The notes below the pieces were generated by a model, which saw only the letters and a list, made by a program, of their open reading frames with translations, was not told the origin of the DNA and did no database searches. From the NCBI GenBank assembly GCA_937934295.1, contig CALHAI010000018.1, forward strand, positions 966 through 64,965: DNA of 64,000 bases, written 5' to 3'. Below, piece after piece: positions 1,213 to 42,507 of this stretch (position 1 is its first letter; every line of letters starts with the position of its first letter). A program made the translations under genes and the position numbers. This DNA comes from an uncultured Blastocatellia bacterium. Its GTDB lineage: Bacteria; Acidobacteriota; Blastocatellia; HR10.

Positions 1213-1241
1213 TAGCCGTGTCCTCCTTCTTCGCGGCGGCA

Positions 1242-2423
1242 TCAGTCCACCCGTTCGAAGATCCCGGCGGCGCCCATGCCTCCGCCGATACACATGGTGA
1301 CCATGCCGTAGCGAGCGCCGCGCCGTTTCATCTCATAGAGGAGCGTCGCCGTCAGTTTCGCTCCTGTGCAACCGAGCGGATGGCCGAGGGCGATCGCTCC
1401 ACCGTTGACGTTGACCTTGTTCACGTCCAGCTCCAGGAGCTTGAGGACGGCCAACGCTTGAGCGGCGAAGGCTTCATTCAGCTCGATCAGGTCCAAATCG
1501 TCCAAGCCCAATCCCACCATGCGGAGCGCCTTGGGGATCGCCGCGACGGGGCCAATCCCCATCTCCTCAGGGGGGACGCCGGCGACGGCATACGCGATGA
1601 GCTTCCCCAAGGGGCGAACGCCCAAGGCCTCCGCCCTCTCGCGCGACATGACGACGACGGCAGCCGCTCCGTCACTCATCTGCGAGGAATTGCCGGCGGT
1701 GATCGTCCCCTCAACGTGGAACACCGGCTTGAGCTTCGCCAGGGCCTCAAGCGAGGTATCGCGACGCGGCCCCTCATCCGTGTCGAAGAGGGTCTCCTGC
1801 ACGCGCGGGCGTCCGCGTTCATCCAGCTCCTCGACAGGGACGCGAAGCGGGACGATCTCCTCCTTGAACTTTCCCGCATCTATGGCCGCGACGGCGCGCT
1901 CGTGACTCCGCAGGGCGAATCGGTCTTGCTCTTCGCGGGAGATGCCGTATTTCCGCACAAGGTTCTCGGCCGTCAGCCCCATGCTCAGGTACACGTCCGG
2001 ATAGTGCTCGAGGAGATAGGGATTGGGCGCGATCTTATACCCCCCCATCGGGATGAGCGACATGGATTCCGTGCCTCCGGCGAGGATCACATCGGCGAAT
2101 CCCGCGGCGATCCGCTCCGTCGCCAGCGCGATCGTCTGCAGGCCCGAGGAGCAGAAGCGATTCACCGTCATCGCGGGCACCGTATAGGGAAACCCCGCAC
2201 GCAGTGCAGCGATCCGTGCGACGTTCATCCCTTGCTCCCCCTCAGGCATGGCGCATCCCAGGATGACGTCATCGATCTCCTCCGGGCGCAACCCGGGGAC
2301 GCGCCGCACGGCTTCGGCCAAGACGACGGCGGCCATATCGTCCGGGCGCATGTGGCGCAATGCCCCTTTGTGCGCTTTTCCGACAGCCGTTCGCACGGCG
2401 GCGACGATCACGGCTTCACGCAT
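1242..2423 (-). CDS. fadA: Acetyl-CoA C-acyltransferase (thiolase)
   Basis: 393 aa. Has the thiolase active-site motifs ([39 protein letters not shown]). It is operonic with the acyl-CoA dehydrogenase and the 3-hydroxyacyl-CoA dehydrogenase. Confidence 0.9.
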
Positions 2424-2452
2424 ACCCCCCTCCTTTCGGTCATCCGCGACGC

Positions 2453-4873
2453 TCAGTTCCTGAGCGGTTTCCCTTCCGCGAGCATATGCCGCATGCGCTC
2501 GCGCGTCTTCGGCTCCCCGAGCAGCGAGAGGAAGGCCTCACGTTCGAGATCGAGCAGGTACACTTCGCTCACCGAGCGCGGCGCGCGCAGATCGCCTCCG
2601 CAGAGCACCCAGGCGAGCTTGCGCCCGATATGGGCATCGTACTCGGTGATCTGTCCGGCGCGCCAGGCCAGATGAATGCCCAACTTGAGCGCGGCCAAGC
2701 CCGGCTCGCCGAGCACGGGAATCTCAGCGGGCGGACTCAGCGGCTCATACCCCTCGCGCACGAGCGCCAGCACCGTCTCTTTCGCATCGGCGATGAGCCG
2801 ATCGCGGTTCATCGTGATGGGATCGGTAGGGCGCAGCAAGCCCATCCTCTTCGCCTCGTGGGCGCTGCCGGAGACCTTCGCCAGAGCGATCGTCTCAAAC
2901 GCCTGTCGGACATAGGGGAACACATCCACCGAATCCCCGCGCGGCGCGCGTTCGAGCATGCGCAGCAACAACTCCTTCGTCCCCCCTCCGGCGGGGATCA
3001 GCCCGACGCTCACCTCGACCAAACCGATGTACGTCTCGGCGGCGGCGCGCACCTTCGGCGCATGCAGCGTGATCTCGCATCCTCCGCCGAGCGTCAAGCC
3101 AAACGGAGCGACGACGACCGGCTTCTTCGCGTACTTCAGCGCGAGGTTCACTTTCTGGAAGGCGCGGATCATCGCATCCAACTCCTCCCATTCTCCTTCC
3201 TCGGCGGCCAGGAGAAGGAGCACGAGATTCGCGCCCGCCGAGAAATGCTCACCTTGATTGCCGATGACCAAGCCCTCGAAATCCTCATCCACACGCTCGA
3301 GGGCGTAGTGCAACATCTGGACCGTATCGGCGCCGATCGTGTTCATCTTCGAGTGAAACTCCAGACAGGCGACGCCATCGCCGAGATCAATGAGGCTCGC
3401 CCCGGGATTCGAGCGAACGAGGCGATTTTGCGCCTTCAGACGGGAGAGCAACAGCAAGCCCGGCGGAAGCTCGACCTCTCGATGGGTCGCGCTCGCCAGA
3501 TCGAAGTAAAGCTGACGTCCCGCCTCTTCGCGATAGAAGGTCTCGTTCCCCGACGCGAGCAGCGCCTGCACGAGCGGGGGGATCGCGCGCCCTTCGCGCT
3601 CCAGTCGCTCGACCATCCAGCGAACGCCCAGCGCATCCCACGTCTCGAAGGGGCCGAGTTCCCAATTGAAGCCCCATTTCATCGCGCGATCCACCTGCAC
3701 GATGTCCTCGGCGATCTCCGGAATCCGATGGGCCGCATAGAGCAACGTCTCGCTCACGATCGTCCAGAGGAATTGCCCCACCCGATCCGAACCGCGGACG
3801 AGCGTTCGCAGGCGCTCTCGCACATCCTCGATCGTACGGGCCATCTCGAGCGCGGGCAGATACACCCGCTGACGCGGCCGGTATTCGAGCGTCCGGTAAT
3901 CGAGAGCGAAGATCTCGCGGCTGATCGGATCCCGGCGATAAAAGCCCTGTCCGGCCTTCTCGCCGATCCATCCGCGACGAATCATCTCCTGCACGAAATC
4001 GGGAAGGGCGAAGACCTCGCGCCACTCATCATGAGGCGCATTGGCGGCGATGTTCTCAACCACGCGCGCGAGGACATCAAGCCCCACGAGATCGGCCGTC
4101 CGAAAGGTCGCGCTCTTCGGGTGACCGATGAGCGAGCCCGTCAGCGCATCCACCTCCTCGAGGGTCAGCTCGTTCTCCAGCATGGCCCGCAGCGTGCCGA
4201 GGAAGGAGAAGGTGCCGATCCGATTGGCGATGAAATTCGGCGTGTCCTTGGCGAAGACGACGCCTTTGCCGAGCACACGATCGCAGACATCGGCGATCGC
4301 GCGCACGACCCCCGGATCGGTCTCCGGCGTCGGGATCACTTCGACGAGCTTCATGTACCGAGGGGGATTGAAAAAGTGCGTGCCCAGAAAATGGCGCCGG
4401 AAACTCTCCGAGAGTCCTTCCTGCAACTGCGCGATCGGGATGCCGGAGGTGTTCGAGCTGACGATCGCATTGGGATGCCGATACGGCTCCACGCGCCGGA
4501 AGAGTGCCCGCTTGATCTCCCGATCCTCAACGACGGCCTCGATGATCCACTCGGCCGTGGCGACCTTCGGCAGATCGTCCTCGAAATTCCCCACCGTGAT
4601 GAGGCGTGCTCGATCCGGATCGAAAAAGGCTGGCGGATGGAGCTGCTTCGCTCGTTCCAATCCCAGGCGCGCGATCCGATTGCGTACCTCCGGGCTCTCC
4701 GGCGTCAGTCCCCGTGCCCGTTCGTCCTCCGTGAGGGACGCCGGCACGATGTCAAGCAGCAGGATCTCGATCCCAGCGTTCGCCAAGTGCGCGGCGATCT
4801 GTGCCCCCATCACGCCCGCTCCGAGCACGGCCGCTTTCTGAATCTTCCTCTTCGTCATGATGACATCTCCCAC
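2453..4873 (-). CDS. Multifunctional 3-hydroxyacyl-CoA dehydrogenase / enoyl-CoA hydratase (FadB/FadJ-like)
   Basis: 806 aa. The N-terminus has the NAD-binding Rossmann motif [13 protein letters not shown] (3-hydroxyacyl-CoA DH). The C-terminus has a crotonase fold ([15 protein letters not shown]). It sits 3 nt downstream of the acyl-CoA ligase gene. Confidence 0.88.
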
Positions 4874-8145: not shown

Positions 8146-9210
8146 TTACGCCTGAGCTCGTAGGTACCGAAGGAGAAACGTTCGAAAGGCTTCCGTATCT
8201 TCCAAGCGGGCCTCGATCCGAGCCACATAAAGCGGAGGGGTTTCCGGGAGCGGGAGCGATTCCAGACGAACCCAATCTTTCTCCGTAGTCACGAGAAATT
8301 CAGCCCCAGCGGCCTCCGCTTCCCGGAACAAGCGCGCTACATCCCTGGGCGTGTACCAGTGGTGGTCTTGGAAGGCTCGGAAGAAGACGATCCGAGCGCG
8401 ATAGTGAGCGAGGTCGCTCTCGAAGAGCTGTGGATTCCCCACGGCGCAAAAAGCGCCGATCGCCCGCCTGTAGAGTTTCTGAGGGGAGAGCGCGTGTCCG
8501 AGGCCAGGGGAGAAGAGTTCGACGATCTCATGATAGCTGTAGAAGATCGGGAGCGGACCGGCCAGCTCACGCAACCGCGCTTCGAGAAGAAGCTGATCGA
8601 ATGGATGATCGGCTCGCGTGACGATGATGGCCGAAGCCCGCGTGATCTCGCTCAACGGTTCGCGCAATCGCCCCAAGGGAAGGAGCGCATCATCCCCAAA
8701 GGGATCCAGAGCGTCAATGAGCAGCAGATTGAGATCGCGTTCGAGAGCGAGGTGTTGAAACGCGTCATCGAGCACGTGGACGTCCGGTCGGAAGCGCTCT
8801 TCGATGTGACGAGCGACCGCGTAGCGGTGGGCGCCGACGGCGACGATGGCACCGGGAAGGCGGCGGGCCAGAAGGATCGGCTCATCTCCGGCGTCCTGAA
8901 CCGTCGCATGCATCTGAAGGCCATCGGAGACGAGCACGAAAGGGGCGCGCGAGCGCCGGCCATATCCGCGACTGATAACGGATGGACGGTAACCTTCTGC
9001 CAGAAGCAAGCGCGCGGTGTATTCGACAAGCGGGGTCTTACCCGTCCCTCCAACGGTGAGATTACCCACGCTGATGGTGAAGGCGCGCGCGCGCTTGGGC
9101 CTCACATAGCCCGCCTTGTACAGCGCGAGTCGAAAAGCGACGCCAAACTTGAACAGCAGCGCCAACCCTTTTCGGATCGGTCGCGGGAGTTGCAGGAGTC
9201 GCTCAATCAT
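8146..9210 (-). CDS. lpxK: Tetraacyldisaccharide 4'-kinase
   Basis: P-loop VGNLTVGGTGKTP and the rest of the LpxK fold. The ORF track shows a 66-aa Pro/Arg-rich N-terminal extension (start 9408). I place the start at ATG 9210 (MIERLLQLP...), which overlaps the waaA stop as ATGA. Confidence 0.85.
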   Translation of the reverse strand: MIERLLQLPRPIRKGLALLFKFGVAFRLALYKAGYVRPKRARAFTISVGNLTVGGTGKTPLVEYTARLLLAEGYRPSVISRGYGRRSRAPFVLVSDGLQMHATVQDAGDEPILLARRLPGAIVAVGAHRYAVARHIEERFRPDVHVLDDAFQHLALERDLNLLLIDALDPFGDDALLPLGRLREPLSEITRASAIIVTRADHPFDQLLLEARLRELAGPLPIFYSYHEIVELFSPGLGHALSPQKLYRRAIGAFCAVGNPQLFESDLAHYRARIVFFRAFQDHHWYTPRDVARLFREAEAAGAEFLVTTEKDWVRLESLPLPETPPLYVARIEARLEDTEAFRTFLLRYLRAQA

Positions 9211-10526
9211 CTCTTCCCCATCACCTCGGCGAGGATCGGTTTCAGATGGGCGAGGATGCGCTCTGTCGTTCCACGATGTTGCGCGAGGAAACGGCAAGTG
9301 GCTTCGTGAAGACGCGCTCGCAGGTCTTCCTCCAGAAGGAGTTGGCCGAGCGCATGGGCGAGGGCGCGAGCGAGCGCTTCCGGGGGCGCCTGAGCGGGGA
9401 TGCGCCACACGCAGGCCTCATAGGCCGGGAAATTCGGATCGCTATATCGGGGGCCGACGATGACGCGGGCGCCGCGCACAAGCGGCTCGATCACATTGTG
9501 GGCGAGGGAAGCGTAGAAACTTCCACCGATCACGGCCACGTGAGCCAACCGATAGACCGCGGCCAGTTCCCCAATGGTATCCAGGAGGATGACCTCGGCT
9601 CGTTCGACCTCCTCTCGATTAGTCGCGCGCGTGCGGCGGACAGATGGTACTGTCGAGGCCCGCAGCAGATCTTCTACTTCATCGAACCGTTCCGGGCGTC
9701 GGGGAGCGATGAGAAGGCGCGCCGAACGAAGGCGTGCGTGTTCGGCCTTGAGGATTTCGAACGCGCGGAGGATCAGCGCTTCTTCGCCCGGTGCTGTGCT
9801 CCCGGCGACAATGAGCGGGCGGTCGGTGGAGAGTCCAAGGCTTCGCGCCAACTCTTCGACTCTTGTCGCCTCGTCCGCTGGGGGACGCGCATCCCACTTC
9901 ACATTGCCGACGACGTGCACGCGTTCCCCGGGGGCACCCAATTCGCGCATCCGGCGGGCGTCCTCTTCGCTTTGCAGGAGCAGGAGGCGGAAGTTTTCGA
10001 GGACGCGTCGCATGAACGGGCGAACCCATCGGTATCGGCGGAACGAGCGATCCGAGAGGCGACCGCTCACCAACAGGACAGGAATGTTTCGTCGGGCGCA
10101 TTGGCGCAAGAAATTCGGCCAGATCTCCGTTTCCAGGATAAGGACGAGGCTTGGATGAAGTCGCTTCAGAGCGCGCGCGACGGAGAGGGGCCAATCGAAC
10201 GGGAAATAGACGATCCGCGCCTTGGTCGCGTAGCGGCGGCGGGCGATCTGCTGTCCCGTCTCCGTCACGGTCGAGAGCACGAGCTGGAACGCCGAGGGGC
10301 CTTCTACCGCTGCGGCGAGGGCTTCGATCAAGGGCTCGGCGGCGAGAATCTCGCCGACCGAGACGCCGTGAATCCAAAGGACCGGCTTCTCTTGCGGAAG
10401 TGACGGGGGGGAACCGAGACGCTCGCGCCATCCTCGGCGTCCTCCTCTGGCGATGGCCACGATCAGATAGGGGAGGAGGAAGACGGTCGCCAGAAGCAGC
10501 AACAGGTTGTAGAGCGCATATCCCAT
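9207..10526 (-). CDS. waaA: 3-deoxy-D-manno-octulosonic acid (Kdo) transferase
   Basis: 439 aa. N-terminal TM, then LWIHGVSVGE...ETEIWPN...GGSF...GHN..EP motifs of the Kdo transferase / GT30 family. Its stop TGA (9207-9209) overlaps the lpxK ATG (9208-9210). Confidence 0.85.
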   Translation of the reverse strand: MGYALYNLLLLLATVFLLPYLIVAIARGGRRGWRERLGSPPSLPQEKPVLWIHGVSVGEILAAEPLIEALAAAVEGPSAFQLVLSTVTETGQQIARRRYATKARIVYFPFDWPLSVARALKRLHPSLVLILETEIWPNFLRQCARRNIPVLLVSGRLSDRSFRRYRWVRPFMRRVLENFRLLLLQSEEDARRMRELGAPGERVHVVGNVKWDARPPADEATRVEELARSLGLSTDRPLIVAGSTAPGEEALILRAFEILKAEHARLRSARLLIAPRRPERFDEVEDLLRASTVPSVRRTRATNREEVERAEVILLDTIGELAAVYRLAHVAVIGGSFYASLAHNVIEPLVRGARVIVGPRYSDPNFPAYEACVWRIPAQAPPEALARALAHALGQLLLEEDLRARLHEATCRFLAQHRGTTERILAHLKPILAEVMGKR

Positions 10527-14216: not shown

Positions 14217-14292
14217 GGCCAGGTAGCTCAGTCGGTAGAGCAGGGGACTGAAAATCCCTGTGTCGGCGGTTCGATTCCGTCCCTGGCCACCA
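14217..14292 (+). tRNA. tRNA-Phe (anticodon GAA)
   Basis: A cloverleaf is readable: acceptor GGCCAGG/CCTGGCC, D-arm TAGCTCAGTCGGTAGAGCA, anticodon stem-loop GGGGA-CTGAAAA-TCCCT, T-arm GGTTCGATTCC, and 3' ACCA encoded in the genome. Confidence 0.9.
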
Positions 14293-14387: not shown

Positions 14388-16628
14388 TCACGGGCCGAGA
14401 TATTCGGGGAGGACGTTCTGCCAGATGGCTTCGAGTTCGCGGACCTGGGCATTGATGGCCATCTTCCCATCAATCGTCACTCTGAAGTGAGATCCTCCGA
14501 CGCGCCCGAGAACGGCATAAGGGATGCGGAACTCCCGGGCGATGCTCTCCAGCGTCGCCAGGTGCTCGGGTTCGATCGTCACGAGGATGCGCGAGGGGGT
14601 CTCGCTGAACAGGAGCGAGATCGGCGAGCAGACGCCTTCGGTCGTCAGGACGAGATCGGCGCCGATGGCCTCCCGCCGATGACTGGAGAAGCAGCATTCC
14701 AGGAGCGCGATGGCCAGGCCTCCATCGGAACAATCGTGCGCGGACTTGATGATCCCTTCGGCAATGGCCGTCAAGCACGCGCGCTGAACCGCGCGCTCCA
14801 GATGGAGATCGAGCCTCGGCGCATCTCCCCCAACGAGCCCATGCATCCAGGCCAGGTATTCGCTGCCGCCTAAGTCATCGCCCGTGCGACCGAGCAGGAC
14901 GATGAGATCGCCTTCGGCTTTGAACCACGGTGTGATCGGCAACGGATGACGATTCCGCCGCTCGGCGTTCCCGTGATTCGCCGGGAAGTAGTTCAACCCC
15001 TCGATCACACCGAGCATGCCGATGACGGGCGTTGGGTAGATGCCGCGCCCTTCGGTCTCGTTATAGAAACTCACGTTCCCTCCGGTCACCGGCGTCTCGA
15101 AGACCGCGCACGCTTCGGCCATCCCATCAATGACCTCACTGAACGCCCACATGACTTCAGGATGCTCTGGGGAGGCGAAGTTCAAACAATTGGTGCACGC
15201 GATGGGGAGGGCACCCGTCACGACGAGATTGCGGCAGGCTTCGGCGACGGCCAATTGAGCGCCGGCGCGCGGGTTCAGATAGCAATAGCGTCCATTGCCA
15301 TCGAGCGTCAGGGCAATCGCCTTGCGCGTCTCCTTGATCCGCAGGACGGCGGCGTCGGCCCCAGGCAGGAGGATCGTGTTCGTTCGCACCATGTGATCGT
15401 ACTGGCGATAGATCCACTGTTTCGAGGCGAGGTTCGGAGAACGCAACATCTGGCGAAGCACCTCTTCAAGCGGTGCTGGCTCGGCGTGAATGCGGTCCCA
15501 CTCCACATCGTCTCCTGTCTCCGCTCGCTTCATCGGTCGGTGATAGACGGGGGCCTCTTCGGCCAGAAGTCGAGCGGGGAGATCGGCGACGAGGTGCCCT
15601 TGATGGAACACGCGCAATCGGCCATCGTCAGTCACGCGGCCGATCTCGACGGCGTCCAACCCCCATTTCGTGAAGACCTCCTTCACCTCCCGCTCATGGC
15701 CGGCGCGAACGATGAGCAGCATGCGCTCTTGCGATTCCGAGAGGAGGATCTCATAGGCGGACATGCCGACTTCACGCTGCGGCACGCGATCAAGATCGAG
15801 TTCGATGCCCGTGTGAGCACGTGCGCTCATCTCGCAACTGGCGCACGTCAGGCCCGCGGCGCCCAGGTCTTGGAGGCCCACGATGGCATTGGTGCGCAGA
15901 GCTTCCAGACACGCCTCCAGAAGCAGTTTCTCCAGGAACGGATCGCCCACTTGAACGGCCGGGCGCTGCTCCAAGGCCGATTGCGTGAACTCGGCCGAGG
16001 CCATGCGGGCTCCGTGAATGCCGTCTCGCCCGGTCTTAGCGCCGACATAGAGGACCGTGTTGCCAGGGCCACTGGCGCGCGCGTAGCAGATCTGCTCGCG
16101 CCTCGCCAGGCCAACGGCCATGGCGTTCACCAAAGGGTTACGCGCGTAGCACTCGGCGAAGAAGACCTCGCCACCGACGGTAGGAACGCCAAAGCAGTTC
16201 CCATAATCGGCGATGCCGCGCACGACGCCGTCCATGATCGCGCGATTGCGGGGGTCCGTGAGCGGACCAAATCGCAGCGAATCCAGAACAGCAATGGGAC
16301 GCGCGCCCATTGTGAAGATGTCGCGCAAGATTCCGCCGACACCCGTCGCCGCCCCTTGATATGGTTCGATGAAGCTCGGGTGATTGTGCGACTCGATCTT
16401 GAAGACGATGCACCAGCCGTCGCCGATATCCACGACTCCGGCATTCTCGCCCGGCCCTTGAAGGACGCGAGGTCCCGACGTCGGCAAGCGTCGCAGGTGC
16501 ACTTTCGAGGATTTGTACGAACAATGCTCCGACCACATGGCCGCGAGCATCCCCACTTCCACGGGATTCGGCTCCCGGCCCAATCGCTCGATGATCCGCG
16601 CATACTCCTCTGGTGTGAGATCGCTCAT
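14388..16628 (-). CDS. purL: Phosphoribosylformylglycinamidine synthase subunit PurL
   Basis: I place the start at the internal ATG 16628 ([42 protein letters not shown]). The track's 131-aa N-terminal extension runs through the efp gene on the opposite strand. Confidence 0.9.
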
Positions 16629-16751
16629 ATCCTCCGCGCCATTGATGAGGATCGCTCCAAGGGCGAGATTATAGCGGAAATCTTGACCGGGCCAAAGTCG
16701 TGCGCTAATTTTCATCTCCTCGAAAAGGTTCACGATTCCGGAGGACGCGTG

Positions 16752-17312
16752 ATGATACAAGCGACGCGTATTCGACGCGGGATGATCATCATTCACGAGG
16801 GCGATCCGTGTCTGGTCCTCGACTTTCGGCATGTGACGCCGGGGAACTGGCGCGCGATGGTGCAGACGAAGCTCCGAAATCTGCGGACGGGGATCTCGTT
16901 CGAGCACCGCTTCCGCTCGACCGATACGGTGGAGAAGGCCGTCCTGGAGGAACAAGAATTCGAGTACCTTTACCATGATGGGACGAGCTACCACTTCATG
17001 AACACGGAGACCTTCGAGCAAATCGCATTGGATGAGGAAGTCCTGGGCGATGCCGTGAAGTTCCTCGTCCCGAATCTGTGTCTCAAGGTCGTCTTCTACC
17101 AGGGGAAGCCGATGGGCGTCGAATTGCCCCCGACCGTGGATCTCCGCGTCGTCGAGACGGAGCCCAGTGTGAAGGGGGCGACCGTGACGGCCGTCAACAA
17201 ACCGGCGACGTTGGAGACGGGATTGGTCATCCAGGTCCCTCCCTTTGTCGAGCCGGGCGATCTCGTCCGCGTGGACACGGCTGAAGGGACCTATCTCGAG
17301 CGCGTGAAGTGA
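16752..17312 (+). CDS. efp: Translation elongation factor P
   Basis: 186 aa. It is hidden inside the track's 788-aa + ORF; only the 3' 561 nt are coding. It aligns well with E. coli and B. subtilis EF-P ([24 protein letters not shown]; ...[18 protein letters not shown]). An RBS GGAGGA precedes ATG 16752. Confidence 0.9.
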
Positions 17313-17315: not shown

Positions 17316-19865
17316 TCATGTCCGAACGCGGAAGAGGAGGTAGAGGCCGAGGGCCAACAGCAATCCGTTCGGACTCCACGCGGCCACTTGGGGAGAGAAA
17401 TACTCGTACCGTCCTAATTGTTCGAAGAGACCCAGGGTGAGCCAGTAGAGCAAACCGATCGTGATTCCGAGACCGATCGCGTGGCGGGCACCTTTCCGAC
17501 CGAAGGTCACGCCGAAGGGGATGCCGAAGAGCGCCATGATGAGGACGGCAGCGGCATTGGCTGATCGTCGTTCCACGGCGATGCGCAGGTCCGTGGGATC
17601 GAGCCCGCGTTCGGCGAGGGCGTGAATCTGCGCGCGCAATTGTCGGGATGTCATGGCCTCCGGTTTTCGGAGCGGCGGCACCAGGAGCGCCGATCCGCTC
17701 TCATCCCTGAGCCAGAGATGGTCGAAATGTCGTTCGGAGCGAAGATGAGCGCCCTCGAATTCCCAAACGGAGACGCGCGAGAGATACCACGCCGCGCGCG
17801 CTTCATCCCACTGAGCGAACTCGGCCTCCAGACGACGGCGCACGAGGAAGCGATCGGGGGAGAAGTCGAGAAGCAAGGGAGCACTGAGGCGTCGCGCCGT
17901 GCGATCGAGGGAAGCAAAGTGCAGGATGCGCTGAGGGAATCGGACGTGACTTCGAGGAGTGGGGCTGGCCATTACGGGCGAACCCGATGCCTCGGGCGGA
18001 AGTCCGGCGATCGTCTCCTCCGACCAGAGGACCATCCAATTCGCCACTGAGGAGGCGGCAGGGAGTTCGACGGCCGAAGGGAAGCGCCCCTTTTTGATGT
18101 AAAAGCGCAGGAGCTCCTGCCGCGCATTCGCCTCCGGTACGACGCGCTCTTGCCAGATGGCGACGACACCCGCCAGGAGGGCGCTCGCGATGAGAATGGG
18201 CGCTGCCGCGCGGGGGATCGAGACGCCGGTGGCTCGCAGAGCCGTGAGTTCCCCCGATTGGCTCAAGATGCTCATGCTCACCAACGCCGCCATCAACGCT
18301 GTGGGGGGGGCGAGGTAACTGAGCACCGAGGGCGTGAGGTAGACGAGATATTCGGCCACGAAGCGAGCCGGGATTTGATTCAGGAGGATGTCCGACGATA
18401 GCTCGAAGACCGTGAAGATGATGAAGAGCGTCCAAAGGCCGACGAGGATCGTCAGGTAGAGGCTGAGGAATCGGAGAGCGATGTACCGATCGCTGATCGA
18501 GAAGCGGAGGACGAATTCGGCCACCGATCCGAGGCCGTCGAGAGTGAAGGGAGCCGACTTCGCGCGCGGGCGGAAGAAGCGATATAGGCGGTGAAGCATC
18601 TGCTGCTCGAGCTGCTGCGCGCGGATCCGCAGCGCGTCCCAAGTGAGGGCGAGCCGGGTGCGGAATGGGGGAGCCGTCGTCGAGGTCAACCGGAGCCGCT
18701 CAGCCATTCGCTCGAGCGTTCGAGCCAGGGAGAAGCGCTCCGATAATCGGAGGACGCTGTAACTCGCCATAACGGCGTTCCCCAGCCACAGGGCTATGGG
18801 GGGAGGGAGGCGTCCGGCGCGGGCCAGGTTCTCACCACCGAGCAACATCAGGTAGTACGCCGCTGCCAGCAGGATACTGAGCCAGAAGCCGTAGCTGCGT
18901 CCGCCGCGCCGACGGGTCGTCCCTAAGGCGACGCCCACGGCGACGAGGACGAGTGGGGAGACGCCCACGGCGGCGCGCTTGTGAAACTCCGTGAGGGCTC
19001 GCCGACCAAGGAGCGGATCATGCCGCGCGGCCCACAGCTCGGGAAGCCTCAGCTCTTGAATCTTCCTCCTCGCTGGGGAAGCACCGGCTTCCAGCTCCGT
19101 TCGCAGTTGCTCGGCCTCCCGTGATTGCGCGTCAAAACGAAGCGTCGTGCGCTCGAACGTTTCTACCTCGTAACGAGGACCGCTGTCGGTATGACGGCGT
19201 CGGTGGATGACGCCATCGTACAGGATCAGGTGCGCATTGTCGGGCGCCTTCCCAAGCTCCAAGCGACCGCACGCGGCTGTGATGAGCGTTAGACCGGAAG
19301 GGGCATTCGGATCGGCGTTCTGCCCTTCGATGGCGAGAAAGAGGTGATGCCACAAATTCGCCTGCCGATCCACCTCGCCAATATAGAGAACCGTGCCCAC
19401 GAACCGATTCTCGAAGACGCGCGGCTTCACCTGTAGGCGAATCCCTTGTAGGATGAGCTCCGCTCGAACCTCCTTTACGCGGCGCATCGCCTGTGGCATA
19501 TCGAAGGCTGCGAGGTAAAAGGTCACAGCGCTCGCCGGAAGAGCCAGCAGGAGCAACGGAACGAGAAGATGGCGTCGACCGATCCCGCTCGTGAACAAAA
19601 TCATCAGCTCGTGATCGCCGTGCAAACGGCCGAGTCCGGTCATCACGGCGACCAGAAGCGAGAGCGGAAGGGTGAGCACGAGGATTCGCGGGATGAGGGA
19701 GACGAGCAGCGTCCGCACGAGCGTCGGCGGAACATCGCGCTTCACGAACAATTCGGCGAACTCGGCCATTTGGCTAGCAAGCACCAGAACCGTGAGGACG
19801 AGGAGGGCGAGCAGGAAGTAGGGGATGATCTCGGCCAGAAGATACCGCTCGATTCGCCACATCAT
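17316..19865 (-). CDS. Fused LPS export permease LptF-LptG (two YjgP/YjgQ domains in one 849-aa polypeptide)
   Basis: Residues about 1-400 are LptF-like (IERYLLAEIIPYFLLALL...). Residues about 430-849 are LptG-like (ISDRYIALRFLSLYLTILVGLW...). Each half has a TM core plus a periplasmic domain. It is one uninterrupted ORF. Its start ATG overlaps the lipB-nudix stop (ATGA at 19862-19865). Confidence 0.75.
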   Translation of the reverse strand: MMWRIERYLLAEIIPYFLLALLVLTVLVLASQMAEFAELFVKRDVPPTLVRTLLVSLIPRILVLTLPLSLLVAVMTGLGRLHGDHELMILFTSGIGRRHLLVPLLLLALPASAVTFYLAAFDMPQAMRRVKEVRAELILQGIRLQVKPRVFENRFVGTVLYIGEVDRQANLWHHLFLAIEGQNADPNAPSGLTLITAACGRLELGKAPDNAHLILYDGVIHRRRHTDSGPRYEVETFERTTLRFDAQSREAEQLRTELEAGASPARRKIQELRLPELWAARHDPLLGRRALTEFHKRAAVGVSPLVLVAVGVALGTTRRRGGRSYGFWLSILLAAAYYLMLLGGENLARAGRLPPPIALWLGNAVMASYSVLRLSERFSLARTLERMAERLRLTSTTAPPFRTRLALTWDALRIRAQQLEQQMLHRLYRFFRPRAKSAPFTLDGLGSVAEFVLRFSISDRYIALRFLSLYLTILVGLWTLFIIFTVFELSSDILLNQIPARFVAEYLVYLTPSVLSYLAPPTALMAALVSMSILSQSGELTALRATGVSIPRAAAPILIASALLAGVVAIWQERVVPEANARQELLRFYIKKGRFPSAVELPAASSVANWMVLWSEETIAGLPPEASGSPVMASPTPRSHVRFPQRILHFASLDRTARRLSAPLLLDFSPDRFLVRRRLEAEFAQWDEARAAWYLSRVSVWEFEGAHLRSERHFDHLWLRDESGSALLVPPLRKPEAMTSRQLRAQIHALAERGLDPTDLRIAVERRSANAAAVLIMALFGIPFGVTFGRKGARHAIGLGITIGLLYWLTLGLFEQLGRYEYFSPQVAAWSPNGLLLALGLYLLFRVRT

Positions 19866-21058
19866 AGATGTAAGGTTTGAGACGCGTTCGCCGGATGAAC
19901 GTCACCGACCGCCTCCAGGCGTTCGCTCAAGATCAACGCGCGACGGTTCCCTTTCCATCGGACGAGGGAGAGCGCCGTCGCCGCATCCTCGAATCGGAAG
20001 GCATCGTGCTCGAACGGGTTGATGCGGATCACCGGGCGCGTCGGGAGAGCGGCCAAGAAGGAATACTCGCGGATGAAGAGGGGAAGGGCATCGGTGGGCG
20101 AGAACGCGAAGGCATGCACGTAGGGGAGGGGGAGAAGCAGGGGACGATTGGGCGGGATGATGTCTTCAAGGTTCACGCCCGTCTCTTCTCGAACCTCTCG
20201 AAGGGCCGCGTCAGCGGGTGATTCGCCGGGTTCGATCAATCCCGTGACGGGTTGCCAGAATCCGCCCTCGCGCTCGGTGCGTTTCAAGAGGAGATACTTC
20301 CCCTCCGGCGTGCGGAGGAGCACTTGAACGGATTCGGCCTCAATGGGACGCTCGACCAGATGGCGATCGAAGACATCTTGAAACTGAACGAGCAGGCGCT
20401 CCTGCACCAGTCCCATCGGGACGGGGGCGCCAAGGAGCCTCGCCATCGAGGTCATCCGCACGTCCGGCAGCCCACAAGGGATGATGAGATCGAAGAAGCG
20501 AAGGTCCGTGTTGACATTGAGGGCCACCCCGTGCGTCGTGACCCAATGGGAGAGATGAACGCCTATGGAGGCGATCTTCTCGCCTCCCGCCCAAACACCC
20601 GTCTGTCCGGGGATTCGTTCGGCCGAGATCCCAAAGTCCTCGAGCGTGCGAATGATGACCTCCTCCAAATCGCGCAAGTATCGGTGGACGTCGCGACGGC
20701 GCCCAAGAAGTTTCAGGATCGGATAGACGACGAGTTGTCCCGGCCCGTGATAAGTGACCGCTCCCCCGCGATCCGTCTCATAGTGCTCCACGTCATAGCC
20801 AGCGAGCACCTGGGGACTGACGCGGAAGTGATCGTTCACGTTCGCACTCAGATGACGCGTCCTTCGCCCAATGGTCACCACATGTGGATGTTCGAGCAGG
20901 AGCAGCTGATCGGGAATGAGATCGGCCTTCCGGGCCGCCGCCAGGAGAGATTGGGCTTGGAGGCCATCTTCGTACTCGACCAGTCCCAGTCGTCGGACAT
21001 GGCACGCGAGCGCGTCGGCGGGGTTCATCCGGTCATCCGGTCGGTCGCGGGCCGTCAT
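19862..21058 (-). CDS. lipB: Octanoyltransferase LipB fused to a C-terminal NUDIX hydrolase domain
   Basis: Residues about 10-235 are LipB (RGGAVTYHGPGQLVVYPIL, catalytic GEKIASIGVH, CGLPDV). Residues about 245-385 carry a perfect Nudix box, G-x5-E-x7-REVREETGV (GLIEPGESPADAALREVREETGV). It is a single ORF of 398 aa. Confidence 0.75.
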   Translation of the reverse strand: MTARDRPDDRMNPADALACHVRRLGLVEYEDGLQAQSLLAAARKADLIPDQLLLLEHPHVVTIGRRTRHLSANVNDHFRVSPQVLAGYDVEHYETDRGGAVTYHGPGQLVVYPILKLLGRRRDVHRYLRDLEEVIIRTLEDFGISAERIPGQTGVWAGGEKIASIGVHLSHWVTTHGVALNVNTDLRFFDLIIPCGLPDVRMTSMARLLGAPVPMGLVQERLLVQFQDVFDRHLVERPIEAESVQVLLRTPEGKYLLLKRTEREGGFWQPVTGLIEPGESPADAALREVREETGVNLEDIIPPNRPLLLPLPYVHAFAFSPTDALPLFIREYSFLAALPTRPVIRINPFEHDAFRFEDAATALSLVRWKGNRRALILSERLEAVGDVHPANASQTLHL

Positions 21059-21063
21059 GGACC

Positions 21064-22431
21064 TCAGACTCCTGTCAGCTCGAACGATTCCAGCGTCCGT
21101 TTGATGTGCGCCATGAACTGGTCGGCGACGGCACCATCAATGAGCCGATGATCGAAGGAGAGGGAGAAATACGCCATCGCCCGAATCGCGATCGCATCGT
21201 CCTCGACGACGACCGGGCGCTTGGTGATACGCCCGACGCCCAAGATCGCGACTTGGGGTTGATGAATCACCGGCGTCCCGAAGAGCGAGCCGAAGACGCC
21301 CGGATTGGTGATCGTGAACGTCCCACCTTGGACCTCTTCTGGTTTGAGCTGTTTGTTCCGAGCGCGCGTGGCCAGATCGTGAATGGCTTTGGCCAATCCG
21401 ACGAGGCTGAGCGCGTCCGCGTTCTTGATGACCGGGACGATGAGGCCCCACTCCAAGGCGACGGCGATGCCGATGTTGATGTCCTTCTTGTAGATGATCT
21501 TGTCTTCGGCGACCGACGCGTTGAGGAGGGGGAAGGCTTTCAAGGCGCTCACGCAGGCCTGGATGATGAAGGGCAGGTAGGTGAGCTTGACGCCGTGTCG
21601 CTGCTCGAAGTCCGGTTGTAGCTGTTCCCGCAGTCGGCTGACGCGCGTCATGTCGATCTCGAAGAACGTCGTCACATGGGGAGCGACGCGCTTGCTGTAG
21701 ACCATGTGCTCGGCGATCTTCTTCCGCATGCCGCTCATCGGGACGATCTCGACGCGCTCTCCGGGGAGATAGGGGGGATGGCGCGGCGCCTCCAGCTCTT
21801 GGGCTTCGGGTGGGGGGGGTTCAACGGGCTGCGGACGCGCTTCAGAGGGACGAGCGGCGCGTTCCTCCAGGTACCGGAGGACGTCGCGCTTGGTGACCCG
21901 TCCGCTGCGCCCCGTCCCCTCAATCTGCGTGAGATCAATGCCATACTCTTGCGCCAACTTCTCCACGACCGGCGATGACCGTACGGCCTTTCGCTCGGCC
22001 GGGATGGTGATGCGGATCTCACGCTTCTGCTTCTCCCAGGGATGAGGGGGGATGATGAGCTCGCGCATGGGCGACGCTTCCGTGGGCGGGGCGACGCGGG
22101 TCGGTTCGGGCGTCGGCTCTCTCGGCGGCATGGCTTCCGTCGCCGGCGCCGCGCGCTCGCTCACCTCGCGCGGTGGCGCCTCAACGGCCTCCTTGTCCGT
22201 CTCGATATAGGCGACGACGGTTTGAATGGGGACCGTCTCCCCCTCGTGGACAAGAACCTCGGCCAGGACACCTTCGGCTGGCGAGGGGATCTCCGCATCC
22301 ACCTTATCCGTGGAGATCTCAAAGAGCGGTTCATCGCGGCGAACATGGTCACCCGGCTTCTTCAGCCACTTGGTGACGGTCCCTTCGGCGATGCTCTCAC
22401 CCATTTGGGGCATGATGACCTCGACCTTCAT
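21064..22431 (-). CDS. Dihydrolipoamide acyltransferase (E2) of a 2-oxoacid dehydrogenase complex
   Basis: Has an N-terminal lipoyl domain (EISTDKVDAEIPSPAEGVL), a peripheral-subunit-binding domain (SPVVEKLAQEYGIDLTQIEGTGRSGRVTKRDV) and a catalytic domain (SFDHRLIDGA). Confidence 0.85.
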   Translation of the reverse strand: MKVEVIMPQMGESIAEGTVTKWLKKPGDHVRRDEPLFEISTDKVDAEIPSPAEGVLAEVLVHEGETVPIQTVVAYIETDKEAVEAPPREVSERAAPATEAMPPREPTPEPTRVAPPTEASPMRELIIPPHPWEKQKREIRITIPAERKAVRSSPVVEKLAQEYGIDLTQIEGTGRSGRVTKRDVLRYLEERAARPSEARPQPVEPPPPEAQELEAPRHPPYLPGERVEIVPMSGMRKKIAEHMVYSKRVAPHVTTFFEIDMTRVSRLREQLQPDFEQRHGVKLTYLPFIIQACVSALKAFPLLNASVAEDKIIYKKDINIGIAVALEWGLIVPVIKNADALSLVGLAKAIHDLATRARNKQLKPEEVQGGTFTITNPGVFGSLFGTPVIHQPQVAILGVGRITKRPVVVEDDAIAIRAMAYFSLSFDHRLIDGAVADQFMAHIKRTLESFELTGV

Positions 22432-22482: not shown

Positions 22483-23457
22483 TCAATAGTTGGCGACCCA
22501 TCGGACGGCCTGGACGATCTCCTCCACCTGGGGGAGGAAGAACTCCTCCAGCGGAGGGCTGAACGGGATCGGCGTGTCCGGAGCCGTGACGCGAACGACG
22601 GGCGCCTCGAGATATTCAAAGATGCGCTCGTTGAGGCGCATAGCGATCTCTCCGGCGATCCCCCCCGTGCGCGTGTCCTCGTGAACGATGACGGCGCGTC
22701 CCGTTTTCGCCACTGAGCTGAGGATGGTCTCGTCATCTAAGGGGAGGAGCGTGCGCAGATCAACGACCTCGACCTCGATGTCCTCCTGCGCGACGATCTC
22801 GGCCGCTTCGAGCGACTTATGCACCATCCATCCGTAGGTCAAGATGGTGACATCCCGACCCGGACGCTTAATGTCCGCTTTCCCAATGGGGACGATGTAG
22901 TCGTCCTCGGGCACTTCCCCTCGAATGCGGCGATAGAGATATTTGTGCTCGAAGTAGAGCACGGGATCCTCGTCCCGAATGGCCGCCTTGATGAGCCCCT
23001 TGGCGTCGTACGGCGTGGCGGGCTCCACGATCTTCAACCCCGGCGTGTGGAAGAAGTACGCCTCGACGTTCTGCGAGTGAAAGGGCCCCCCATGCACGCC
23101 GCCACCGCAGGGGCCGCGCACGACGATGGGAACGCCCGCGCCCCAGCGATATCGGCACTTCGCGGCGAAGTTCGTCAGTTGATCGAAGGCGATCGAGATG
23201 AAGTCGATGAATTGCATCTCAGCGACCGGACGCAAGCCCACCAGCGCCGCTCCGATGGCCGCGCCCACGATGGCCGCCTCCGAGATCGGCGTGTCAATGA
23301 CGCGCTCTTCACCGAAACGTTCGAGGAACCCTTCGGTGACCTTGAACGCGCCTCCGTAGACGCCGATGTCTTCGCCCAGCAAGAAGACGCGTTCATCGCG
23401 CTCCATCTCCTCCCAGAGCCCTTGGCGAATAGCTTCCAGATAAGTCAACACGGGCAT
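22483..23457 (-). CDS. 2-oxoacid dehydrogenase E1 component, beta subunit (transketolase-like)
   Basis: 324 aa. Typical E1beta N-terminus (LTYLEAIRQGL...VFLLGEDIGVYGGAFKVTEGF...VIDTPISE). Confidence 0.9.
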   Translation of the reverse strand: MPVLTYLEAIRQGLWEEMERDERVFLLGEDIGVYGGAFKVTEGFLERFGEERVIDTPISEAAIVGAAIGAALVGLRPVAEMQFIDFISIAFDQLTNFAAKCRYRWGAGVPIVVRGPCGGGVHGGPFHSQNVEAYFFHTPGLKIVEPATPYDAKGLIKAAIRDEDPVLYFEHKYLYRRIRGEVPEDDYIVPIGKADIKRPGRDVTILTYGWMVHKSLEAAEIVAQEDIEVEVVDLRTLLPLDDETILSSVAKTGRAVIVHEDTRTGGIAGEIAMRLNERIFEYLEAPVVRVTAPDTPIPFSPPLEEFFLPQVEEIVQAVRWVANY

Positions 23458-23473: not shown

Positions 23474-24499
23474 TCAGGATCGACTTTTCACCGCATGCTC
23501 GCTCGGTAGGGGAGCCTCTGAAACGGACGGCGTCTCGGCATAGACCCCCTCCAAGGCGATTCGTGGATCGGGCATCGGCGACTGCTCCGCATATTGCAGA
23601 TCGGCTTCGATCTCCTGCTCGATGCGATGGGTGATGGCTTCGAAATCCGTCTCATCGGCCATGCCGTGCTCTTTCAGATAGATCTCCAGGCGAAGGATCG
23701 GATCGCGCTTTTGCCAATATTCGAGCACCTCGCGAGGGACGTACCACGCGTCGTCGTGTTCGGCGTGACCACGCATGCGGAAGGTCTTGACCTCCAGCAG
23801 CGTCGGCCCCAATCCCTCGCGCGCGCGCTCGATGGCGCGACGCGTGGCGTGATAGACTGCGATGACGTCGTTGCCATCCACCGTCTCGCCGAAGATCCCG
23901 TAGCCGATGGCGCGATCGGCGATGTTCTCGATGGCCATCTGCCGGTGCTTGGGCGTCGAGTAGGCGTAGCCGTTGTCCTCAGCGATGACGATCAAGGGGA
24001 GCTTCAAGACGGCGGCGAAGTTCAGGCCTTCGTGGAAGACCCCCGTGCTGGTCCCCCCATCGCCGATGTAGGTGAGAGCGACCGAGCGCTTTCGCTGCAT
24101 CTTCGAGGCCAAGGCGATTCCGGCCATCACCGGGATGAGATCGCCGAGATGGCTGATCGGAGGGATGATGCCGCGCTCCACGCTCCCGAAGTGGACGATG
24201 CTATCCTTGCCGCGTGTCGGACTCGTCCCTTTCCCCATGTACTGGGTGAAAATCTCCCAGGGGCGGATGCCGCGTACAAAGAGCGCGCCGAGGTTTCGGA
24301 TCATCACCGCCAGGAAGTCTCCCTCTTCGAGAGCATAGGCACTGGCGACGGATTCGCCTTCTTGTCCAAGACTGCGATAGAGGCCCCCCACGATCTTCCC
24401 CTGCCGGTAGAGGCGTTGCAGCCGCTCCTCCACCATTCGGGTCAGTTTCATGTAGTAGTACATGTCCAGGAGTTGCTCACGGGTCAGCGGCTCTTCCAT
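23474..24499 (-). CDS. 2-oxoacid dehydrogenase E1 component, alpha subunit (TPP-dependent)
   Basis: 341 aa. TPP-binding motif GDGGTSTG...AEDNGYA. The substrate (pyruvate, branched-chain 2-oxoacid or acetoin) cannot be resolved from sequence. Confidence 0.88.
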   Translation of the reverse strand: MEEPLTREQLLDMYYYMKLTRMVEERLQRLYRQGKIVGGLYRSLGQEGESVASAYALEEGDFLAVMIRNLGALFVRGIRPWEIFTQYMGKGTSPTRGKDSIVHFGSVERGIIPPISHLGDLIPVMAGIALASKMQRKRSVALTYIGDGGTSTGVFHEGLNFAAVLKLPLIVIAEDNGYAYSTPKHRQMAIENIADRAIGYGIFGETVDGNDVIAVYHATRRAIERAREGLGPTLLEVKTFRMRGHAEHDDAWYVPREVLEYWQKRDPILRLEIYLKEHGMADETDFEAITHRIEQEIEADLQYAEQSPMPDPRIALEGVYAETPSVSEAPLPSEHAVKSRS

Positions 24500-27239: not shown

Positions 27240-27394
27240 CTAGGGCGTAGCGTCGTCCTGCGCCCTTGGCTCGAAGCTCTTGCTTCTCTTTGAGTTGCCT
27301 ATGGCCTGAACGCTCGTCGCTTTGGCCCGGAATTTGCTTTCAAGAATCATGTCAAGAGGTCTTTTTGCCCAAGATATGGTGTGGGAGGAGAGCT

Positions 27395-29020
27395 ATGGGA
27401 GGAAGAATCGTGCCAGAGAGAAGCGGGCTGACCTCTTGCGGGGCGCTTGTGGCTCCGCTGCCAAAGGGGTTGCCGAAGCTCGTCGAGTCCATCTGTCCGG
27501 AATGTTGTCGCGTCATCCCCGCGCGCATCTTCGAGCACGAGGGACGGGTGATGATGGAGAAGCGGTGTTCAGAGCATGGTGAATTTCGAGACCTCGTCTG
27601 GTCCGATGTTCGACTCTACTTGAAAGCCGAGCAATGGGCCTTTGAAGAGAGGCGCGGGGTCTCCAACCCGGCTGTGCCGGATGCCGTGCTCTGTCCGCAG
27701 GATTGTGGCCTCTGTCAGATGCATTTGAGCCACACGGGCTTGGCGAACATTGACCTGACGAATCGTTGCAATTTGACCTGTCCCGTCTGCTTCGCCAATG
27801 CGAACGTGGCGGGCTATGTCTACGAGCCTTCGCTCGAACAGGTCTATCGGATGCTGCGGCAATTGCGGGAGATGCGCCCGGTCGCGGCTCGCGTCATTCA
27901 ATTCTCGGGCGGGGAGCCAACGATCTATCCCCATTTCATCGAAGCGGTGCGGATGGCACGGGACCTGGGGTTCTCGCACATTCAGGTCGCCACAAACGGC
28001 CTCCGATTCGCCACTGAGCCCGGCTTCGCCGAGAGATGCGCCGAGGCCGGATTACATACGCTCTATCTTCAGTTCGATGGCTTGAGTGATGAGACCTATC
28101 GCAAGACGCGCGGGCAACCGCTCTGGGAGCTGAAGCAACGGGCTGTCGAAGCGGCCCGTCGGGCGGGACTGAAGATCGTCTTCGTCCCGACGGTCGCGCG
28201 TGGGGTGAACGATCACGAAGTCGGTCGCATCCTGCAGTTCGCCATCGAGAACATTGACGTCACGTCGGGCATCACGTATCAGCCGGTGACGTTCACCGGG
28301 CGCATCACCCAGAAGAAGCGGGAGCAAATGCGATATACACTCACCGACTTGGTGAAGGATCTGGCCGAACAGACCGGGATCGTGGACACGTATCACGATT
28401 GGTATCCCACGCCTTGTACCGTCTCATTCTCGGAGTTCTTGAGCGCCTTGCAGGGGGAAGAGACGATCGCCCTCACCTGCCATCCGCATTGTTCACTGGC
28501 GACTTATCTCTTTGTGGACGCGCGGACGAAGACGGCGATCCCCGTCACACGCTTTGTGGACGTGGAGGGGATGTTGCGAGCGTTTCGCGAGTGGGCGCCG
28601 CGGATCCGTCGGCTTCCTTCCAAGAAGCTCTCGGCACTGATGGCGTATATCGTCCTGCGGCGGTTCTTCCGACAGGAGGCGGCGCCACCGGGATTGACCT
28701 ACGTGAAGTTCCTCCGAACGCTCGAGGGGCTCGTGGACAAGCGCATCGGACGCGGGGAGAACGAGGAGCGGCTCACCTATCGAACGCTCATGGTCGCCGG
28801 GATGCATTTCATGGATGCCTACAACTACCAGCTCGATCGCGTCATGCGCTGCGTCATCCACTATTCGGCTCCCGATGGGCGAATCTATCCCTTCTGCACG
28901 TACAACTCGGGGATCACATTCCGCGAGAGGATCGAGCAGAGCTTCTCGATCCCCTTGGAGGCGTATCTCACGGCTTCCGGGAAGGAGCCCGTGGCGGCGA
29001 GGACCGTCTTGAAGGTGTGA
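27395..29020 (+). CDS. Radical SAM enzyme with N-terminal zinc ribbon, of the MJ0619 / tetraether-lipid-synthase (Tes) / Mss-like family
   Basis: Start ATG 27395 with a strong RBS GGGAGGAG. The N-terminus has CPECC...IPARIFEHEGRVMMEKRCSEHGEF (Zn ribbon) and a second C-x2-C...C pair (CPQDCGLC). The canonical CX3CX2C radical-SAM motif is NIDLTNRCNLTCPVCFANAN, followed by the glycine-rich SAM site FSGGEPT. An extension of about 250 aa follows, with no SPASM cysteines. The family assignment is from memory of family signatures, not from a database search. Confidence 0.6.
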   Translation: MGGRIVPERSGLTSCGALVAPLPKGLPKLVESICPECCRVIPARIFEHEGRVMMEKRCSEHGEFRDLVWSDVRLYLKAEQWAFEERRGVSNPAVPDAVLCPQDCGLCQMHLSHTGLANIDLTNRCNLTCPVCFANANVAGYVYEPSLEQVYRMLRQLREMRPVAARVIQFSGGEPTIYPHFIEAVRMARDLGFSHIQVATNGLRFATEPGFAERCAEAGLHTLYLQFDGLSDETYRKTRGQPLWELKQRAVEAARRAGLKIVFVPTVARGVNDHEVGRILQFAIENIDVTSGITYQPVTFTGRITQKKREQMRYTLTDLVKDLAEQTGIVDTYHDWYPTPCTVSFSEFLSALQGEETIALTCHPHCSLATYLFVDARTKTAIPVTRFVDVEGMLRAFREWAPRIRRLPSKKLSALMAYIVLRRFFRQEAAPPGLTYVKFLRTLEGLVDKRIGRGENEERLTYRTLMVAGMHFMDAYNYQLDRVMRCVIHYSAPDGRIYPFCTYNSGITFRERIEQSFSIPLEAYLTASGKEPVAARTVLKV

Positions 29021-42390: not shown

Positions 42391-42507
42391 CCCTCCTTAT
42401 ACGGGGCTTGCTGCGACGGCGACCATGCCCGACGCCAGATGTTACGACAGGTACGGGCCGAAGGCAAGATAGGCGAAGGCCCTTCGGCGAAGAGCCTTCG
42501 CCGAGAG

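Follow-up and report, generated by a model that had tools for sequence, protein, structure and literature searches.

A single gene in a 64,000-nucleotide stretch of DNA from an uncultured Blastocatellia bacterium (Acidobacteriota; contig CALHAI010000018.1, positions 966 to 64,965, assembly GCA_937934295.1; hereafter the window) was found to encode a complete octanoyltransferase, LipB, joined to an intact Nudix hydrolase domain. Both domains could be identified, the catalytic residues of each are intact, and the same fusion recurs in other genomes, where 2-oxoacid dehydrogenase genes form its conserved context. The Nudix domain is firmly assigned by its sequence to the NudB subfamily. We read the protein, with moderate confidence, as a bifunctional enzyme made of a LipB octanoyltransferase and a NudB/FolQ-type dihydroneopterin triphosphate (DHNTP) pyrophosphatase, in which the two active sites would be independent and the fusion would serve co-expression. 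Confidence in this reading is moderate because Nudix functions transfer poorly by homology (PMC1971073).

Architecture of the Fusion Protein

The preliminary description of this DNA had proposed a single open reading frame (ORF) holding a complete LipB and an intact Nudix domain, and had quoted the motifs around the catalytic Lys, the Cys and the Nudix box. All of this was borne out: the ORF encodes 398 amino acids (aa), K161, C195 and the Nudix box are present, and Pfam and NCBIfam recognized the domains. PF21948 (LplA-B_cat) matched aa 29-227 (E = 1.2e-42) and PF00293 (NUDIX) matched aa 243-362 (E = 5.3e-16, 59 bits against a gathering score of 21), so that both domains were over their gathering scores. 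Both domain types are familiar, and precomputed Pfam annotations already show the fusion.

The linker between the domains is only ~10-15 residues long and is conserved in the alignment of fused homologues. An AlphaFold2 model calculated with this alignment reached a mean predicted local distance difference test score (pLDDT) of 92.9 and a predicted template modeling score (pTM) of 0.89. The linker itself had a pLDDT of about 96-98, with a predicted strand at 233-236. The protein is thus predicted to form a compact two-domain body and not beads on a string.

Recurrence and Phylogeny of the Fusion

Homologues were searched among 5.8 billion proteins, and the best 120 clusters were considered. 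PF21948 and PF00293 occurred together in all 120, down to 44% identity, and these clusters were drawn from JGI, ENA, NCBI and Logan assemblies. A second search, of the GTDB species genomes, relied on the Nudix domain only (pattern [GD]FWQ[PIT][VLM]TG) and gave 272 confirmed stretches; the GTDB locus counts given here refer to the best 80 of these 272. The Nudix domain was encoded in the same ORF as the LipB domain in 78 of the 80 loci. One of the two exceptions was ended by the contig end. The other, locus L066 (7217-8779), was the only one with LipB and Nudix in different reading frames, probably through an indel error in that metagenome-assembled genome (MAG).

The LipB–Nudix fusion is genuine and old, since it recurs in the best 120 clusters and in 78 of 80 loci and since the G+C content is uniform along the gene (0.62 in each half, compared with 0.616 for the window). 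That a frameshift in sequencing or assembly, or a lost stop codon, joined two adjacent genes has a practically negligible probability and was rejected: the split frames of L066 would speak for it, but that locus is exceptional and looks like an indel error, while a continuous ORF was present in all 120 clusters from many independent sources and in 78 GTDB loci, with a conserved linker and uniform G+C. The fusion had been thought possibly unique, but it is widespread in public data under the LipB label only. The public names of these proteins were only "lipoyl(octanoyl) transferase" or "Octanoyltransferase", and one fragment was named "MutT". The earlier statement that no LipB-Nudix fusion has been characterized agrees with the literature searched, in which nothing was found on this architecture, and a survey of the Nudix clan does not mention lipoyl enzymes (PMC5389931).

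The Acidobacteriota loci among the best 80 came from Blastocatellia, Thermoanaerobaculia and HR08/HR10-type hot-spring bacteria. Many loci belonged to Myxococcota (Myxococcaceae, Archangium and Anaeromyxobacteraceae) and one to Gemmatimonadota. The closest locus was that of an Acidobacteriota MAG, with 94% identity. Four MAGs (L004, L008, L022 and L050) were titled "uncultured Clostridia bacterium"; their fusion proteins and gene order clustered with those of Acidobacteriota, and the Clostridia labels are probably wrong.

The full-length protein tree separated, for the most part, Acidobacteriota-type from Myxococcota sequences. In a neighbor-joining tree of the Nudix domains, 65 of the 71 fused domains fell into one clade, which was nested among standalone NudB-like proteins and fusions to dihydropteroate synthase (DHPS). 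A few "standalone" members of the fused clade look like N-terminally truncated fragments.

The LipB Domain

The N-terminal half passed the cut-offs of both LipB equivalog families of NCBIfam, with 191.2 bits against 155 for NF010925 and 157.7 bits against 83.55 for TIGR00214. K161 lies within GEKIASIGVH and C195 within IIPCGLPDV, and Lys161, Cys195 and His176 never vary in the 48 aligned fused proteins. The two dyad residues stand in the PCG and K-[IV]-[AC]-[AS]-IG contexts typical of LipB. The spacing from Lys161 to Cys195 is 34 residues, equal to that of K135 and C169 in Escherichia coli LipB. The top Foldseek match was the Thermus LipB 2qhs (E = 4e-26, target TM 0.94, rmsd 1.9, 42% identity), and Mycobacterium tuberculosis LipB 1w66 was matched with a target TM of 0.87. 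LplA structures matched the N-terminal part only.

Compared with known LipB proteins (that of E. coli and the structures from M. tuberculosis, 1w66, and Thermus thermophilus, 2qhs), the fusion protein shares the whole catalytic domain and its fold, the Cys/Lys dyad at the canonical spacing and an equivalog-level score. Its gene lies next to the gene for the E2 substrate and, in relatives, next to that for LipA. It differs by the extra C-terminal domain of ~160 aa, which is absent from every characterized LipB.

The Nudix Domain Belongs to the NudB Subfamily

The Nudix box at aa 273-295 is an exact match to GX5EX7REUXEEXGU by regular expression. Its residues G273, E279, R287, E288, E291 and E292 were invariant in 48 of 48 fused homologues, and F267-W268-Q269, T272, E331 and H351 never vary in these proteins either. 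Judged from their sequences, both halves of the protein look catalytically competent.

Sequence, profile and fold comparisons all gave E. coli NudB, a DHNTP pyrophosphatase of the FolQ type (EC 3.6.1.67; structures 2o1c, 2o5w and 5u7e), as the best match. The single domain matched NudB 2o1c over its whole length as the best sequence hit in the Protein Data Bank (PDB), with E = 2e-8. A family profile of 17 fused domains compared with the PDB gave E = 2.3e-23 for NudB and 1.6e-14 for the next structure; hydrolases of diadenosine tetraphosphate (Ap4A) reached about 1e-13 to 1e-14 against this profile. For the Nudix half, Foldseek likewise ranked NudB first (5u7e target TM 0.77; target TM 0.75-0.79 for 5u7e, 2o1c and 2o5w; 28% identity), ahead of Ap4A hydrolases. 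NF006961 (NudB) was the top NCBIfam family for all 17 fused domains. NudB and the fused domain share the FWQxxTG motif, the Nudix box, E100, E117-H118, F81, W123 and a size of ~145 aa. The fused domain differs in being only ~28% identical to NudB and under the NCBIfam equivalog cut-off, in having no equivalent of Tyr91, in being always fused, and in its N-terminus, which is the linker to LipB and not a free Lys-rich N-terminus. Within this subfamily, we infer from sequence that the exact substrate would be DHNTP.

An exhaustive search of 1.84 billion representatives with the fused-domain profile returned 70 proteins at E <= 1e-30, which were LipB fusions, fragments and standalone proteins of ~150 aa. 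Four of the nearest standalone relatives exceeded the NudB cut-off of 103 bits (103.2, 108.7, 118.2 and 133.8 bits), and one of those passing it is a Blastocatellia protein that NCBI calls dihydroneopterin triphosphate diphosphatase. Two representatives, one of them a six-member cluster, carry a Nudix domain of this subfamily fused to DHPS (Pterin_bind), which gives a direct link to folate. These metagenomic proteins (P0134, P0228 and P0271-P0275), annotated "dihydropteroate synthase", scored 150-154 bits on the fused-family profile and lie near the fused clade in the tree. Like the LipB fusion, they join the Nudix domain to an enzyme of a cofactor pathway. Their Nudix domain is N-terminal and the partner acts in the same (folate) pathway, whereas the partner in the LipB fusion comes from a different cofactor pathway.

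Other partners of NudB-like Nudix domains were an AhpC/TSA peroxiredoxin, a second Nudix domain in tandem, and a hemerythrin domain in a LipB-Nudix-hemerythrin triple fusion. The proteins carrying NudB-like domains with varied partners were P0134, P0228 and P0271-P0275; P0196 and P0208; P0132; and P0162, P0170, P0186 and P0197. No further fusion partners were found in ten longer relatives that were checked.

The preliminary description had suggested that the fusion ties octanoyl transfer to control of a coenzyme A (CoA), acyl-CoA or ADP-ribose pool. This did not hold. The CoA-Nudix signature LLTxR[SA]x3[RK]x3Gx3FPGG was found in 0 of 48 members, whether by the strict pattern, by a loose one or even by FPGG alone, and the NADH pyrophosphatase motif SQPWPFPxS downstream of the Nudix box was likewise found in 0 of 48. 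No CoA-pyrophosphatase family was among the NCBIfam matches of the fusion or of the fused domains. With CoA and acyl-CoA Nudix enzymes (NudL, Pcd1, NUDT7/8/19), the fused domain has in common only the generic Nudix fold and the Nudix box; it lacks the NuCoA signature upstream of the box. Specificity for CoA or acyl-CoA, NADH or ADP-ribose was therefore rejected, as the motifs are absent and such families rank far below NudB.

Comparison with the Active Site of NudB

The roles of the contact residues of NudB as metal or phosphate ligands and as pterin contacts were taken from PMC13151061, in which the contacts with the dihydroneopterin moiety (F81, F84, Y91 and S135) come from a docking model only. 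R260, Q269, T272 and E350(-H351) of the fusion correspond to R29, Q37, T40 and E117(-H118) of E. coli NudB and were conserved in 68-71 of 71 fused sequences. The equivalents of the Nudix glutamates, R29, Q37, T40, the stacking F81, E100 and E117-H118 were conserved in fused and standalone members alike, and those of F35-W36 and W123 were also invariant or nearly so in both. The equivalent of the pterin-stacking F81 was conserved in 70 of the 71 fused sequences.

Gene Neighborhood of the Fusion

Five nucleotides (GGTCC) separate the E2 stop codon (TGA, 21064-21066) from the ATG of the fusion gene at 21058, and an AGGAG lies 10 nt upstream of this ATG; the TGA of the fusion gene and the ATG of the 849-aa LptF-LptG gene overlap as ATGA (19862-19865). 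This reading of the junctions agrees with the earlier placement of the gene between E2 and the lptFG fusion, 5 nt from the former and overlapping the latter by ATGA. From the junction spacing, the gene may be translationally coupled at both ends, and the gene spacings suggest that E1 alpha, E1 beta, E2, LipB/Nudix and LptFG form one operon (Table 1). Scans of the window for promoter-like and terminator-like sites were not above chance.

Table 1. Features of the LipB–Nudix fusion gene and its neighbors in the window.
Feature	Position	Strand	Evidence and remarks
LipB–Nudix fusion gene	19862..21058	minus	single ORF, 398 aa, ATG start; LipB domain, short linker and NudB-like Nudix domain
LipB (octanoyltransferase) catalytic domain, aa 29-227	20378..20974	minus	PF21948, NF010925, Foldseek
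Lys161 codon, catalytic Lys of the LipB Cys/Lys dyad	20576..20578	minus	codon verified; invariant in 48/48 fused homologues
Cys195 codon, acyl-thioester Cys of LipB, PCG motif	20474..20476	minus	codon verified; invariant in 48/48
Linker, aa 228-242 (DVFDRHLVERPIEAE), from last LipB helix to first Nudix strand	20333..20377	minus	alignment columns, pLDDT
NudB-like Nudix hydrolase domain, aa 238-382	19913..20347	minus	PF00293; NudB sequence, profile and fold matches
Nudix box GLIEPGESPADAALREVREETGV, aa 273-295	20174..20242	minus	regular expression match and translation
E2 dihydrolipoamide acyltransferase (lipoyl, E3-binding and catalytic domains)	21064..22431	minus	PF00364, PF02817, PF00198; directly upstream; LipB substrate protein
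E1 beta	22483-23457	minus	ORF; same 2-oxoacid dehydrogenase operon
E1 alpha	23474-24499	minus	ORF; matches pyruvate dehydrogenase E1-alpha models below their cut-offs
LptF-LptG fused permease gene, 849 aa	17316..19865	minus	PF03739; TIGR04407 and TIGR04408 both over cut-offs; downstream neighbor, not part of the function

Among the Acidobacteriota-type loci with enough sequence, 7 of 9 had an E2 gene on the same strand no more than 5 kb upstream, as did 25 of 47 such Myxococcota loci. E1 homologues were upstream of the fusion in many loci. LipA was upstream in 25 of 44 Myxococcota loci, and E3 often followed the fusion directly in Anaeromyxobacteraceae-type loci. The conserved context is thus made of 2-oxoacid dehydrogenase genes, which fits the role of LipB.

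Adjacency to lptFG was limited to a few close Acidobacteriota relatives and was rejected as a functional clue. The same LptF-LptG fusion occurred in a Blastocatellia MAG (857 aa) and in the close relatives L002-L005 and L018. In that Blastocatellia MAG (L084), a standalone equivalog-grade NudB (P0180, 160 aa, 615-1097, plus strand) is convergent with a fused lptFG (1070-3643, minus strand) and overlaps its 3' end. The lptFG neighbor shared by this NudB and the fusion in the window, in differing orientations, may be a trace of the origin of the gene order. No folate genes were found around the standalone relatives L084 and L087-L089, which is uninformative, as is the context of E. coli nudB.

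In Myxococcota, a conserved pair of convergent genes, for a metallo-beta-lactamase (MBL)-fold hydrolase and GTP cyclohydrolase II, followed the fusion in 33 of 57 loci. Beyond this pair there was MoeA (L027) or, in 9 of 52 Myxococcota loci, a cluster of 6-pyruvoyltetrahydropterin synthase (PTPS), GTP cyclohydrolase I, a short-chain dehydrogenase/reductase (SDR) and an FAD oxidase. Examples of such downstream clusters are L081 (9036-12261) and L027 (8394-11194). The neighborhood with PTPS and GTP cyclohydrolase I agrees with a pterin substrate because GTP cyclohydrolase I makes DHNTP. As evidence it is weak, since only one phylum has it and the genes are not co-directional.

The window also contains long ORFs antisense to true genes. 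For example, one of 299 aa (20252-21151, plus strand) lies opposite the fusion gene and one of 788 aa (14946-17312) overlaps purL; such ORFs arise mechanically from the high G+C content and are not genes. The true efp is the last part only of the 788-aa ORF.

Proposed Function and Alternatives

In the proposed function, the LipB domain would take octanoyl from octanoyl-acyl carrier protein onto Cys195, with Lys161 assisting, and hand it on to the lipoyl-lysine of the E2 whose gene lies directly upstream. It presumably also serves other lipoyl proteins, and LipA would then insert sulfur. The C-terminal domain would work as an Mg-dependent Nudix pyrophosphohydrolase of the NudB/FolQ subfamily, cleaving DHNTP to DHNMP and PPi. 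Chemical coupling of the two activities is improbable, and the fusion most likely fixes the co-expression of two housekeeping cofactor enzymes, to which the predicted rigid two-domain body may add stability.

Several observations weigh against a DHNTP pyrophosphatase acting independently of LipB. The NF006961 cut-off of 103 bits was not reached by the whole protein (61.2 bits) or by the domain alone (65.3 bits). At the position of Tyr91, 30 of 38 ungapped standalone sequences have Y or F, but the fused clade is variable or gapped there and lacks an equivalent. Neither F84 nor S135 shows conservation among fused or standalone members; Gly occupies the S137 position in 67 of 71 fused sequences, and the N138 position, which is Leu or Asn in the fused clade, is Leu in 39 of 71. 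These conserved features of its own could reflect a shifted specificity of the fused clade. NudB itself is promiscuous, acting on dATP and isoprenyl diphosphates, and homology is a notoriously poor guide to what Nudix enzymes do (PMC1971073, PMC5389931). The pterin-gene neighborhood was found only in Myxococcota, on the other strand or past a convergent gene. No pterin genes were found in the Acidobacteriota loci, and no folate or pterin genes among the 23 of ~40 candidate genes of the window that were scanned, mainly at 4.9-45 kb. Finally, the rigid two-domain model is equally compatible with functional coupling of the predicted domains.

There is a smaller but appreciable chance that the domain is an active NudB-family enzyme with another substrate unrelated to lipoylation, such as a house-cleaning enzyme acting on dATP or (d)NTPs, on ApnA or on another phosphorylated metabolite. 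The score under the NudB equivalog cut-off, the loss of the Tyr91 equivalent and the clade-specific changes around S135-N138 would all suit this explanation, as would the Ap4A hydrolases being the next-best relatives by structure and sequence. NudB also groups with ApnA hydrolases in the phylogeny of the Nudix clan and was first described as a dATPase (PMC5389931). The NudB profile match is nine orders of magnitude better than that of Ap4A hydrolases, however, and the FWQxxTG and EH motifs common to NudB are invariant. The sister lineages of the fused clade, moreover, are equivalog-grade NudB proteins and NudB-DHPS fusions.

Functional coupling, in which the Nudix domain would act on or sense a molecule connected with lipoylation or with the 2-oxoacid dehydrogenase and both domains would form one working unit, is unlikely. 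Candidates for such a molecule are octanoyl- or acyl-CoA or CoA, damaged thiamin diphosphate, an acyl-adenylate, and an ADP-ribosylated lipoyl carrier. In other bacteria, lipoylation and ADP-ribosylation are linked by cross-talk, which would favor coupling, but neither sirtuin nor macrodomain genes were found in the neighborhoods examined. The CoA and NADH motifs are absent from all 48 members, no Nudix family of the CoA, ADP-ribose or thiamin type ranks near NudB, and the chemistry of LipB involves no pyrophosphate-containing small molecule. These points stand against a very short and well-ordered linker, which together with the pTM suggests a fixed arrangement of the domains, against the retention of the fusion across two phyla without exception inside dehydrogenase operons, and against the conserved residues that the fused clade has of its own.

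A more specific form of this idea, which we consider quite improbable, is one rigid machine whose NudB-like site is functionally tied to lipoylation. Such a site might couple or gate octanoyl transfer by a pterin- or GTP-derived metabolite, or it might remove a damaged cofactor or a pyrophosphate-containing by-product where the 2-oxoacid dehydrogenase or glycine cleavage operates.

A purely structural or regulatory role for the Nudix domain, without catalysis, perhaps in place of the C-terminal domain of LplA, is very unlikely: the Nudix domain does sit C-terminally, where LplA ligases carry their accessory domain, but its catalytic residues and the extra NudB ligands are invariant in 48-71 fused sequences down to ~40% identity, which would be unexpected in a degenerate domain, and LipB needs no adenylation domain.

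Other Features of the Window

A gene at 27266-29020 (plus strand) adjoins thiC and encodes a 584-aa radical-SAM protein that matched the tetraether lipid synthase family Tes (NF045702) with 582 bits against a cut-off of 450. A pterin-related function, to which a Pfam match to Zn_ribbon_HMPTM had pointed, was rejected for this gene in favor of the Tes homologue identified by NCBIfam. The Tes homologue may have a bearing on tetraether lipids of the membrane-spanning or branched type. No thiamin pyrophosphate (TPP) riboswitch was detected upstream of thiC by Rfam in the window, and the scan of the whole window found no riboswitch, either for tetrahydrofolate (THF) or for TPP, at Rfam gathering thresholds. 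The sole Rfam matches at this threshold in the window were tRNA genes at 14217-14289 (plus strand) and 61518-61590 (minus strand).

Genes for LpxK, a Kdo transferase, TolB, Pal and CpoB/YbgF were located at 8146-10526 and 41530-44843, both on the minus strand. These outer-membrane/lipopolysaccharide and Tol-Pal genes fit the genome of a diderm acidobacterium.

Implications

The fusion adds an unstudied, phylum-wide domain architecture to the well-studied LipB, and hundreds of "lipoyl(octanoyl) transferase" entries conceal a second, intact catalytic domain. De Crécy-Lagard et al. (PMC1971073) report the gene for DHNTP pyrophosphatase as "missing" from the majority of bacterial genomes. If the fused Nudix domain is a DHNTP pyrophosphatase, it would supply this folQ/nudB step, so often missing, in many Acidobacteriota and Myxococcota, and the protein would be a rare fusion between lipoate and folate metabolism, whose cofactors come together in the glycine cleavage system. 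Should the domain act on another substrate, the conserved residues particular to the fused clade would mark a new Nudix specificity. If the two domains were instead one rigid machine, the fusion would reveal a previously unknown regulatory link from the folate/one-carbon to the lipoate systems.

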